64,000 nucleotides of DNA from an uncultured Erysipelotrichaceae bacterium (GTDB lineage: Bacteria; Bacillota_I; Bacilli_A; RF39; UBA660): NCBI GenBank assembly GCA_902785135.1, contig CACZXL010000001.1, positions 2,109 to 66,108 on the forward strand, read 5' to 3'. Position numbers and translations under genes: made by a program. Under the pieces are notes generated by a model. It saw only the letters and a program-made list of their open reading frames with translations. It made no database searches and was not told the origin of the DNA. This document shows positions 5,862-7,101 of the stretch, in pieces. The stretch's first letter is position 1; each line of letters starts with the position of its first letter.

Positions 5862-5887
5862 AAAAAAGAAGCTAATTTAGCTTCTTT
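5862..5887 (-). terminator. Intrinsic terminator overlapping the stop of the AgrB-like fusion gene
   Basis: AAAGAAGCTA-AAT-TAGCTTCTTT stem followed by a T-run on the minus strand. Confidence 0.75.
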
Positions 5888-7101
5888 ATTTTTTCATTAA
5901 TTCTATCTCTAATTTTTCTTATACCACTAATGGAATAATTGTATTTAAAAGATAAAGATATATCACTAGTTTTATTTATATAAAATTCATAACAAATTTT
6001 ATATTTGATACTATATTTTTCTACTATTTTTAAAATTGTTTCTTCAAATACATCTATAGGCATACCTCTATATAATGGAGAGTAAGTCTTTTTTACAAAT
6101 TTAGAAGTAACATAAGATAAACCTACTCCTAATAATATGGGTATAATAATACTAAAACCTACTGGCATAGTAACTCTATTCAAACAATAATATGTTGAGT
6201 TAGACACTATAAAACAAATCAACATACTATTAAAATGAAAAGCTTTACCAAAGGATCTTTTTGATAACCAAAAAGAAGTTAGTATGAAGATGCATTCTAC
6301 AAAAGTATTATTTAATCTAGCGACCAATAATATTAGAACAACACTAAAGATATTCCAAATTAAACTAAGAAAAATATAGATTATTATCGTTAATTTTTCA
6401 ACCTTGTCTTTCTTTTTAAATTTTTTAAGATTATTTTGATAATTTTTTCGCAATTTTAGCAGCGATTTCTTTAAGTTTTGTTTCTTTTGCGAAAATGAAT
6501 AAGCTTCCGCCTCCCCACATAAAAGTACACCTCCTTCGTATAACTTATAAGTAATAATCATCAATAGAATATAATCAAAGTTTAATATAAAATTGATAAC
6601 AAAGTTACTATAATCAATTTTTAAATTACCATTTCTAATTATTCCAGATATAATCTCATATAAAATCATTAACAAGGATATTTTAAATAGTTTAACAATC
6701 CTTTTAAAATTGAATCTCTTTTCATATATTATTACTGAAATAATAAAAACGGATAAATCTAAAATTATTGAAAATAATACATTATTAACAATATTCTTCG
6801 TATAATAACCATTAAAGTAATTGATTCCTGTTACAAATAAGCCATAAATTTTCATTTTCGTTGAATAATCATTAAAAGTCATACTTAATAATATATAAGT
6901 ATAAATATACAAACTAATAAAATACCAAATATAATCTAATTTATATTTTAGTATGATATTACTAATTTTTAAAACTATAGTATTATTAGTATCTATACCA
7001 AAATAATTTAATCCAACTATCTTAAGTATAAAAACTATTACTAATACAAAAAGATACACTTTTATTGATGTTGATAAATATTTTTTATAATCTTTAAACA
7101 T
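5872..7101 (-). CDS. Membrane protein: N-terminal multi-TM domain + AgrB-like protease module + C-terminal HTH-like domain
   Basis: SKRSFGKAFHFNSMLICF keeps the AgrB R-x6-H-x6-C spacing (codons starting 6258, 6237, 6216); C-terminus ICYEFYINKTSDISLSFKYNYSISGIRKIRDRINEKI resembles a sigma-70 region-4/LuxR HTH. Likely start is ATG 7101 (SD AGGTGA); the track starts at GTG 7110. Confidence 0.65.
   Translation of the reverse strand: MFKDYKKYLSTSIKVYLFVLVIVFILKIVGLNYFGIDTNNTIVLKISNIILKYKLDYIWYFISLYIYTYILLSMTFNDYSTKMKIYGLFVTGINYFNGYYTKNIVNNVLFSIILDLSVFIISVIIYEKRFNFKRIVKLFKISLLMILYEIISGIIRNGNLKIDYSNFVINFILNFDYILLMIITYKLYEGGVLLCGEAEAYSFSQKKQNLKKSLLKLRKNYQNNLKKFKKKDKVEKLTIIIYIFLSLIWNIFSVVLILLVARLNNTFVECIFILTSFWLSKRSFGKAFHFNSMLICFIVSNSTYYCLNRVTMPVGFSIIIPILLGVGLSYVTSKFVKKTYSPLYRGMPIDVFEETILKIVEKYSIKYKICYEFYINKTSDISLSFKYNYSISGIRKIRDRINEKIKKLN
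6431..6520 (-). CDS. Nested out-of-frame 29-aa peptide MWGGGSLFIFAKETKLKEIAAKIAKKLSK, candidate AgrD-like propeptide
   Basis: AAGGAGGTG SD 7 nt upstream of ATG 6520; TAA at 6431-6433; different frame from the host gene; not in the ORF track. Confidence 0.6.
   Translation of the reverse strand: MWGGGSLFIFAKETKLKEIAAKIAKKLSK

Follow-up and report, generated by a model that had tools for sequence, protein, structure and literature searches.

The 64-kb window examined here (64,000 nucleotides of contig CACZXL010000001.1, from an uncultured Erysipelotrichaceae bacterium) carries on its minus strand a long gene at 5872..7101. Its 409-residue product consists of an N-terminal membrane domain with six transmembrane (TM) segments, a Lys-rich linker, an AgrB-like domain and a C-terminal helix-turn-helix (HTH)-like domain. 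The unusual feature of the locus is a dual-coded pheromone gene, a short open reading frame (ORF) for an AgrD-like precursor which lies out of frame within the linker-coding part of the long gene. A short AgrC-type histidine kinase is encoded next to it (5080..5793). The long gene and the peptide inside it may represent a compact cell-to-cell signalling cassette. All coordinates refer to the window unless another locus is named with them, and all features of the window are on the minus strand unless stated otherwise.

The open frame of the main gene covered 5872..7110 and gave 412 amino acids when counted from a GTG codon. The conserved start was the ATG at 7101 (MFKDY...), which is common to more than 100 homologues and yields the 409-amino-acid product; residues are numbered from this Met. 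The protein search returned 807 matches, more than 100 of them full-length. The best 120 of these 807 were nearly all full-length proteins of 400–436 amino acids with 54–67% identity and 99% coverage, and were gathered from many samples. Insertions and deletions among the homologues were all in frame where they fell in the linker. The AlphaFold2 model of the whole protein, based on 115 homologues, had a mean predicted local distance difference test score (pLDDT) of 76. It placed six long helices and one short helix at residues 5–193, disorder at 191–203, a long Lys-rich helix at 204–229, four hydrophobic helices at 233–335 and a four-helix bundle at 349–406 (pLDDT 84–91). The distribution of Lys and Arg predicts that the N-terminus, the linker, His289/Cys296 and the C-terminal bundle face the cytoplasm, while the conserved motifs of the N-terminal domain face outward. 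The only domain reported by Pfam for the whole protein was AgrB (PF04647). The NCBIfam scan of the 409-residue protein gave no match, and the PDB sequence search with the whole-protein profile gave nothing meaningful. The G+C content of the fusion and kinase genes (5080..7101) was 20.7–21.1%, compared to 24.6% for the whole window.

The cytoplasmic linker (residues 194–232; 6406..6522) is dual-coding along most of its length. The embedded ORF occupies 6431..6520 in the +2 frame and encodes a peptide of 29 amino acids, MWGGGSLFIFAKETKLKEIAAKIAKKLSK. It is led by the Shine-Dalgarno sequence AAGGAGG (6530..6536), which the main frame reads as a conserved K/E-G-G, and its ATG is located 7–10 nt after this sequence. 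The peptide can be divided into a short exo-tail, a candidate five-residue ring S-L-F-I-F and a basic amphipathic follower, AKETKLKEIAAKIAKKLSK. Wherever a locus included the linker (47 of 47, comprising the window, genome and viral loci and a split version of the gene), an equivalent ORF of 25–31 amino acids was present together with a Shine-Dalgarno site. The peptides follow the pattern M-x(1-8)-S-[WLYAVMI]-x-x-F-A-x-E, after which an amphipathic Lys-rich tail begins. The Ser, Phe and Ala of Ser-x3-Phe-Ala-x-Glu were fixed in the 44 peptides of the fused type, and the split subfamily has S-x-W-F-[LF]-P. Such a layout is that of AgrD, namely Cys or Ser plus four residues ending in a hydrophobic one and then a C-terminal tail, with cleavage predicted between the two. 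Pfam, NCBIfam and PHROGs searches with the embedded peptide alone gave no match.

Both frames of the linker are under selection. The codon-position entropy of ordinary gene parts was lowest at position 2 and highest at position 3, as in the AgrB domain, where positions 1, 2 and 3 gave 0.61, 0.24 and 1.10. The main frame in the overlap gave 0.48, 0.89 and 0.81, which is the periodicity of the embedded frame. The recoding test was conducted on 27 unique loci by redrawing the codons of the embedded peptide synonymously with the codon usage of the family. The long frame stayed open in 0.1–5% of the draws for 22 of the 27 loci, with a mean of 6.5% (closed in approximately 93%), but it is actually open in all 27. 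Leu codons such as CTT were chosen where TTA would give a stop codon in the long frame. The periodicity and the open long frame against expectation thus indicate that selection keeps both frames. What the main frame reads as 'KGG' and as a near-invariant Cys in the linker corresponds to the Shine-Dalgarno site and the ATG of the embedded frame.

The middle domain (residues 233–335; 6097..6405) consisted of four TM helices and matched PF04647 at residues 226–342 with an E-value of 1.5e-8 and 34.7 bits, against a gathering score of 23. The same model matched 115 of the 115 aligned homologues. The window sequence contains R-x6-H-x6-C as R282, H289 and C296. H289 (6235-6237) and C296 (6214-6216), which are placed at the cytoplasmic face of the membrane, were invariant in alignments of 30 and 115 sequences. 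The position of R282 was variable among the homologues (R/Q/H/G/T/K/S), with K281 and G285 as its fixed neighbours. The catalytic residues of Staphylococcus aureus AgrB are His77 and Cys84, with the same H-x6-C spacing (PMC10482373). When judged against a full-length, stand-alone six-TM AgrB of approximately 190–200 amino acids, the domain differed, since AlphaFold2 gave it four TM helices within a protein of 409 residues. The PDB matches of the AlphaFold2 model obtained with Foldseek included no AgrB structure. Model score and catalytic residues assign the domain to the AgrB family, in which it is not canonical in length, helix count, conserved Arg or independence. By analogy with AgrB and AgrD, the predicted maturation of the embedded peptide by this domain is well supported.

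The N-terminal domain (residues 1–193; 6523..7101) could be defined by its AlphaFold2 model and Lys/Arg topology. Modelled alone, it reached a pLDDT of 84 and a predicted template modelling score of 0.73, with six long hydrophobic helices and one short helix. It has a conserved head (MFKDY..LDYFG) and a hypervariable middle. Its conserved motifs predicted to face outward are LDYFG-D-NNP following TM1, Q149/S152/R156 where TM5 ends and D176 where TM6 begins. This domain evolves by far the fastest of the three, its mean pairwise amino acid distance being 0.71, whereas the AgrB domain had 0.27 and the HTH-like domain 0.34. It gave no match in Pfam, NCBIfam, PHROG or PDB, and Foldseek comparison of its model against PDB gave none either (best probability 0.11). 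Its profile retrieved 263 relatives from 1.84 billion representative proteins; the best 150 of the 263 were fusions and stand-alone proteins of approximately 190–230 amino acids, with no kinase among them. By these comparisons it is an orphan that falls outside every described family. Two candidate identities were tried with hhalign and rejected. The probability was 1.3% against sensor domains from the most closely related AgrC proteins of full length, and 0.6% against the AgrB-like domain, with which an origin as a degenerate AgrB by internal duplication was considered.

The C-terminal domain (residues 343–409; 5875..6075) is predicted to be a cytoplasmic four-helix HTH-like domain with the fold of sigma-70 region 4 and KorA. 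It was the sole part of the model with structural matches. Foldseek against PDB and BFVD returned the KorA HTH, region 4 of SigD, SigR and SigF, UPF0122, and phage sigma region 4, DUF1492 and HTH proteins. The probabilities were 0.9–1.0, the template modelling scores 0.65–0.78 when normalised to the target, and the root-mean-square deviations about 2.2–3.5 Å, with 2.2–2.5 Å for the KorA HTH and sigma-70 region 4 domains. The C-terminal 67 residues of the window protein gave no match in Pfam, NCBIfam or PHROGs, and the PDB profile search was empty. Two distant fusion homologues of 438 and 440 amino acids showed sub-threshold Pfam Sigma70_r4 matches at their C-termini (E=3e-4; 20.7 and 14.3 bits against a cut-off of 24.1), and the split phage version showed a weak sigma70-ECF match. 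The last helix is strongly and conservedly basic (GIRKIKDRINxKIK). The domain can thus be described as having a region-4/HTH fold in the model, at the level of the fold only and below the threshold of any sequence family.

A first-pass annotation of this DNA had proposed a three-module polypeptide with roughly six TM segments in about 190 N-terminal residues, a dual-coding linker, an AgrB-type middle module with catalytic residues and an HTH-like soluble C-terminus. This layout is real, conserved and selected, with the HTH holding as a fold match, and the proposed coordinates (5872-7101) agree with the conserved start codon. Of the proposed R-x6-H-x6-C motif, the His and Cys stood the comparison with homologues, whereas the Arg was confined to the window and some relatives. 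The claim that the protein matures a peptide proved well founded, since a conserved AgrD-like precursor is encoded inside its linker.

The order of genes at the chromosomal site was RpiB, SpoIID, M23 peptidase, (MreB), GT4 glycosyltransferase, fusion gene, short kinase gene, cold-shock protein and HPF, with SecA further along. The kinase gene (5080..5793) encodes 237 amino acids with one TM segment, an HPK10-type H-box (NHEYNNQL) and a HATPase_c_5 domain, and is an orthologue of AgrC proteins of 342–409 amino acids. It keeps only the last TM helix, which is followed by intact H-, N- and G-boxes. Within the kinase family, lengths range from approximately 235 to 409 amino acids, and only the number of N-terminal TM helices differs. 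The window kinase was approximately 50% identical to the cytoplasmic half of the AgrC proteins in sister genomes (L049–L053), which have a canonical agr locus at the same site (e.g., L050, 5299..7823). This sister locus comprises a 144-amino-acid receiver-only regulator without a LytTR output domain and an AgrC of 342–409 amino acids. On the other strand, convergent with AgrC, it comprises an AgrD of 40 amino acids recognized by TIGR04223 and an AgrB of 200 amino acids. Of all these parts, the window has just the 237 C-terminal residues of AgrC and is without AgrB, AgrD, the receiver and the sensor helices of AgrC. A complete agr system would include an AgrA-type LytTR response regulator, but neither LytTR nor receiver domains were matched within the 64-kb window. 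A short kinase accompanies the fusion at all syntenic loci but L010, which has a 248-amino-acid LytTR response regulator instead (3255..4001).

Since sister genomes have canonical agr at this site, the short kinase of the window is probably a truncated resident AgrC. On the simplest reading, a phage-type cassette would have taken the place of the receiver gene and of the 5' part of agrC, with loss of agrBD. The first-pass annotation had noted that the N-terminal six-TM block is about the size of the AgrC sensor missing from the adjacent kinase. An identity of the two is not supported, given the hhalign probability, the lack of kinases among the best 150 of the 263 relatives, the occurrence of the block as a separate gene in phages and the full AgrC at the sister-genome site. 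The presence of a full AgrC with AgrB and AgrD at that site makes truncation or replacement a better explanation of the missing sensor than its transfer to the fusion. The short kinases are still conserved and thus probably still work. On the far side of HPF, a gene at 2850..4130 encodes a 426-amino-acid secreted or membrane protein with a T4SS (type IV secretion system)-pilin-like hydrophobic region and, at its C-terminus, a CHAP peptidoglycan hydrolase domain; related genomes conserve this protein 3' of HPF.

The fusion was found at 15 genome loci and on 29 IMG/VR viral contigs, many of which are 38–46 kb long. In L009 the genes before it encode a tail endopeptidase, a siphovirus DUF859 protein and a CHAP-LysM endolysin, and in L007 portal and minor capsid genes precede it. 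On the viral contigs the module is usually located right after the lysis genes; it comes after the endolysin in L009, L019 and L054. At viral and phage-context loci, the fusion gene was never followed by a kinase or regulator, which fits a self-contained system. As in phage moron-like cassettes, the gene has its own promoter and terminator and, in phage genomes, adjoins lysis genes. A split version could also be observed in phage contigs, in the order holin, endolysin, six-TM gene and AgrB-HTH gene, with products of 190–230 amino acids for the stand-alone six-TM protein and 189–190 for AgrB-HTH. A small ORF overlapping the junction of these two genes encodes MFGIPSLWFLPSHKAMEKAFRKLFK or MGYPSFWFFPSKSAMEKAYNKFKAVFTK, and no kinase is present. 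The split family comprised about 85 clusters, all uncultured, on contigs of up to approximately 48 kb. Since the six-TM domain, the peptide and AgrB-HTH were found either fused or split, these three appear to be the unit that travels together. A neighbour-joining tree of the copies, built on the question of whether the chromosomal ones are monophyletic, was star-like.

Two further proteins occur beside the gene at viral and phage-context loci. A conserved coiled-coil protein of approximately 170 amino acids is usually next (e.g., L009, 6369..6881), and a Gly/Cys-rich protein of approximately 295 amino acids (phrog_16490) follows as well in about half of these loci (e.g., L009, 7014..7901); both may belong to the same module as the fusion. 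The metagenome-assembled genome (MAG) labels of the contigs L005, L008, L012 and L013, which carry the gene, were inconsistent and included Elusimicrobiota (Ca. Ruminimicrobiellum), Muribaculaceae and Lachnospiraceae. L012 is a syntenic chromosomal locus whose neighbours are nearly identical to those of the window, and L008 is phage-like. The labels are probably binning errors, as would be expected if viral contigs were binned wrongly.

Analysis of the flanking sequences revealed one transcription-unit-like block consisting of a consensus promoter, a leader hairpin, the gene and a terminator. The promoter (7161..7189) is of the sigma-70 type, TTGACA-17-TATAAT, with 12 of 12 consensus positions, and similar perfect promoters were found upstream of several homologues. 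The leader hairpin (7120..7152; dG -14.2, z -4.8) is terminator-like, being flanked by an A-run and a T-run, and lies between the promoter and the ribosome-binding site. Of 26 unique loci, most (approximately 23) have an equivalent hairpin, and these include loci of both the phage and the chromosomal kind. Its role could be attenuation or stabilisation of the 5' end; in some phages the hairpin could simply terminate the gene before it. The Rfam search of the locus, including this hairpin, gave only a sub-threshold chance match. A bidirectional hairpin resembling an intrinsic terminator overlaps the stop codon of the gene (5865..5887, not assigned to a strand). Just after it, an extended -10-like element of the kinase gene, TGTATAAT, could be identified within 5794..5871. 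The kinase is probably transcribed separately from the fusion gene.

These results are best accommodated by a compact, self-contained, phage-type AgrBD-like peptide cassette located at the site where sister genomes have canonical agr, a reading to which we give a probability of about 50%. For the steps after translation, this reading relies on analogy, topology, conservation and context. The embedded peptide would be translated from its own Shine-Dalgarno site, and its basic amphipathic tail would hold it at the inner face of the membrane. There, as in the AgrB/AgrD reaction, Cys296 and His289 would cut it after the invariant Phe. The invariant Ser would then resolve the acyl-enzyme to give a five-residue lactone with a short, lineage-specific exo-tail. 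AgrB chemistry and a comparable Ser-lactone autoinducing peptide of Staphylococcus intermedius are reviewed in PMC10482373. The six-TM domain would handle the mature peptide at the outer face, most likely as its receptor and possibly also as its exporter. This role is proposed from the outward orientation predicted for its conserved polar residues and from the way its hypervariable part varies along with the mature part of the peptide. The membrane-tethered HTH would bind DNA as the output, and the short kinase would be a remnant of a resident AgrC whose sensor, partner receiver, AgrB and AgrD were displaced. The sensing by the six-TM domain and the transcriptional output by the HTH are the two parts that we only infer.

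A more far-reaching version of this scheme is possible, and we put it forward tentatively. One phage-borne gene could be a complete device which encodes an overprinted pheromone precursor, its maturation, sensing on the outside and a DNA-binding answer. Phages of uncultured gut or rumen bacteria (MAGs labelled Bacilli) might use such a device for arbitrium-like decisions or for manipulation of lysogens. In the lineage of the window, the host would have captured the cassette in place of agr, perhaps recruiting the decapitated AgrC kinase.

Several observations weigh against the cassette reading. Only 1–8 residues precede the Ser of the peptide, so the N-terminal amphipathic leader of AgrD is absent, as is the acidic, Pro-containing tail of canonical AgrD. 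Eight embedded peptides gave no match with the AgrD models TIGR04223 and PF05931 at E<=10; in the same run the canonical AgrD of L050 scored 20.8 against a cut-off of 19. The PF04647 match covers only profile positions 9–124 of 185, approximately four TM helices, leaving the last third of the profile absent, and the Arg equivalent to R70 of AgrB is not conserved in the fusion family. The six-TM domain has no detectable relative of known function, which makes its role as a receptor a conjecture. The HTH assignment draws on a predicted fold, on Foldseek E-values near 1 and on sub-threshold Pfam scores. The scheme offers no explanation for a terminator-like hairpin between promoter and gene. The upstream regions of 26 loci were searched for a conserved operator, but nothing recurred apart from the promoters and the hairpin, and a common repeat was not found. 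Finally, searches of the GenBank phage collection and the PLSDB plasmids with both the fused and split proteins gave no match and no cultured carrier.

Covariation between the peptide and the protein domains was evaluated by Mantel tests on 27 related sequences, which returned significant values. Distances of the mature part of the peptide (exo-tail and ring) correlated with those of the six-TM domain at r=0.61 and with its distal half at 0.57, compared to 0.05 for the AgrB domain. The C-terminal tail of the peptide correlated with the HTH-like domain at r=0.45 (p<=0.0005), compared to 0.16 for the AgrB domain lying between them and 0.10 for the six-TM domain. These correlations are at clade level and rest on few clades, and physical linkage explains part of the correlation between the mature peptide and the six-TM domain; this limits their weight for the cassette reading, and they are counted only as hints. 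As such, they suggest that the six-TM domain may deal with the mature peptide, and that the HTH-like domain may act on the follower or have a history in common with it.

The second of these correlations can also be read in favour of a protein that only synthesizes the peptide. The HTH-like domain would then be a docking domain for the follower, functionally resembling the recognition element of ribosomally made peptides that are modified after translation (RiPPs). The six-TM domain would export or trim the product, with sensing located elsewhere or nowhere. A peptide that has no N-terminal membrane-targeting helix of the AgrD type needs another route of recruitment, and amphipathic anti-sigma helices are known ligands of sigma region 4 domains, examples among the Foldseek targets being SigD4-RsdA and SigF/anti-sigma. 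However, the last helix of the domain is strongly basic like DNA-recognition helices, and the follower itself is basic. Across clades, more basic tails pair with more basic helices, which is not charge complementarity, and the covariation comes from few clades. We regard this explanation as doubtful, while it is the one that keeps the most ground beside the cassette reading.

The adjacent kinase could alternatively obtain its sensor from the fusion. The six-TM domain would be the peptide sensor onto which the TM helix of the sensor-less kinase docks, which gives a two-piece AgrC. The chromosomal loci with the fusion beside a kinase (the window, L003, L012, L015 and L016–18) all have a short kinase of 237–304 amino acids with 1–3 TM segments, and kinases of 342–409 amino acids are found at the four loci where AgrB/AgrD is canonical. 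The short kinases also keep their H-, N- and G-boxes at 45–62% identity and so are still under selection. This arrangement is nonetheless unlikely. The six-TM domain shows no homology to AgrC sensors, and kinases are missing among the best 150 of its 263 relatives. No kinase accompanies the majority of copies, which lie on viral contigs or among phage genes, and the syntenic L010 has a LytTR regulator in its place. The window contains no response regulator, and beyond a terminator the kinase gene has a promoter-like site of its own.

Since the phage module lies directly after holin and endolysin genes, the peptide might not be a signal at all. Being small and hydrophobic, it could be a toxin, a bacteriocin or a lysis-timing factor made by the phage, with the six-TM domain providing immunity or export and the HTH autoregulating the gene. 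The moron-like promoter and terminator would suit such a module, as would the two conserved proteins of no assigned function (approximately 170 and 295 amino acids) that follow it. Against this, a Ser with four hydrophobic residues, a tail that is cleaved off behind them and an AgrB-type enzyme are hallmarks of autoinducing peptides (PMC10482373). The chromosomal copy sits at the agr site, and Pfam, PHROGs and NCBIfam revealed no resemblance to known holins or bacteriocins. We consider a non-signalling role quite improbable. The existence of the split two-gene version in a related phage subfamily could suggest that the long ORF is two or three genes joined by mis-assembly or recent loss of a stop codon, but such an artefact, or a fusion unique to this assembly, has a negligible chance in view of more than 100 independent full-length homologues (400–415 amino acids) from many samples (29 on IMG/VR viral contigs), linker indels that are all in frame, and a frame open in 27 of 27 unique loci against a mean expectation of 6.5%.

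Comparison of the cassette with known systems revealed resemblances as well as differences. It shares with staphylococcal AgrB/AgrD a polytopic membrane domain with an H-x6-C dyad at the cytoplasmic face and a co-encoded small precursor, which has a nucleophile (here Ser) plus four residues, a removable tail and a conserved Glu just past the predicted cleavage site. Unlike staphylococcal AgrB, the fusion has about two thirds of the profile (four TM helices) and the additional six-TM and HTH domains, and does not conserve the R70 equivalent. Unlike AgrD, its precursor has no leader, has a basic tail rather than an acidic, Pro-containing one, escapes the AgrD models and is encoded out of frame inside the enzyme gene instead of downstream. 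The agr locus of the sister genomes occupies the same position between the GT4 glycosyltransferase and the cold-shock/HPF genes, but the window carries the fusion cassette in place of the receiver, AgrC sensor, AgrD and AgrB. The nearest published case found was Clostridioides difficile phage phiCDHM1, a phage of a Firmicute, which is reported to carry ordinary bacterial-type agr genes (PMC3901668). In the fusion cassette, the enzyme is joined to two additional domains, the peptide gene is overprinted and a kinase is absent; the GenBank phage collection contained no sequence match to it.

The C-terminal 65 residues are predicted to share their fold with sigma-70 region 4, KorA and small HTH proteins of the DUF1492 type. 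In contrast to sigma-70 region 4 proteins, the fusion has no sigma region 2, would be tethered to the membrane and falls below the family thresholds in sequence. Membrane-bound one-component regulators are known from the ToxR/CadC type and from BcrR of Enterococcus, and the arbitrium system (AimP/AimR) is a peptide communication of phages that uses cytoplasmic receptors. What the cassette might share with these is possibly a logic only, that is, sensing outside the cell combined with a DNA-binding domain of its own, or a secreted phage peptide. None of them is known to have a peptide-maturing enzyme in the same polypeptide. No paper was found on this architecture, on an AgrB-HTH fusion or on an overprinted autoinducer gene, within a literature coverage that was incomplete and is no proof of absence.

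In the linker, two overlapping frames are both selected, which makes it a clean bacterial example of this kind with good statistical support. If the proposed mechanism is true, the cassette would be the most compact agr-type system known, with a signal gene, a maturation enzyme, a candidate receptor and a candidate output in 1.2 kb, and it would be a second, unrelated family of phage peptide communication. It is small enough for a single construct, and its predicted products are short lactone peptides that can be synthesized. Since the AgrD models tried here failed on the embedded peptides, searches for agr systems that are limited to annotated AgrD would miss precursors hidden in other genes. 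The presence of a phage-type cassette in place of a resident agr locus bears on the turnover of signalling specificity in gut bacteria.

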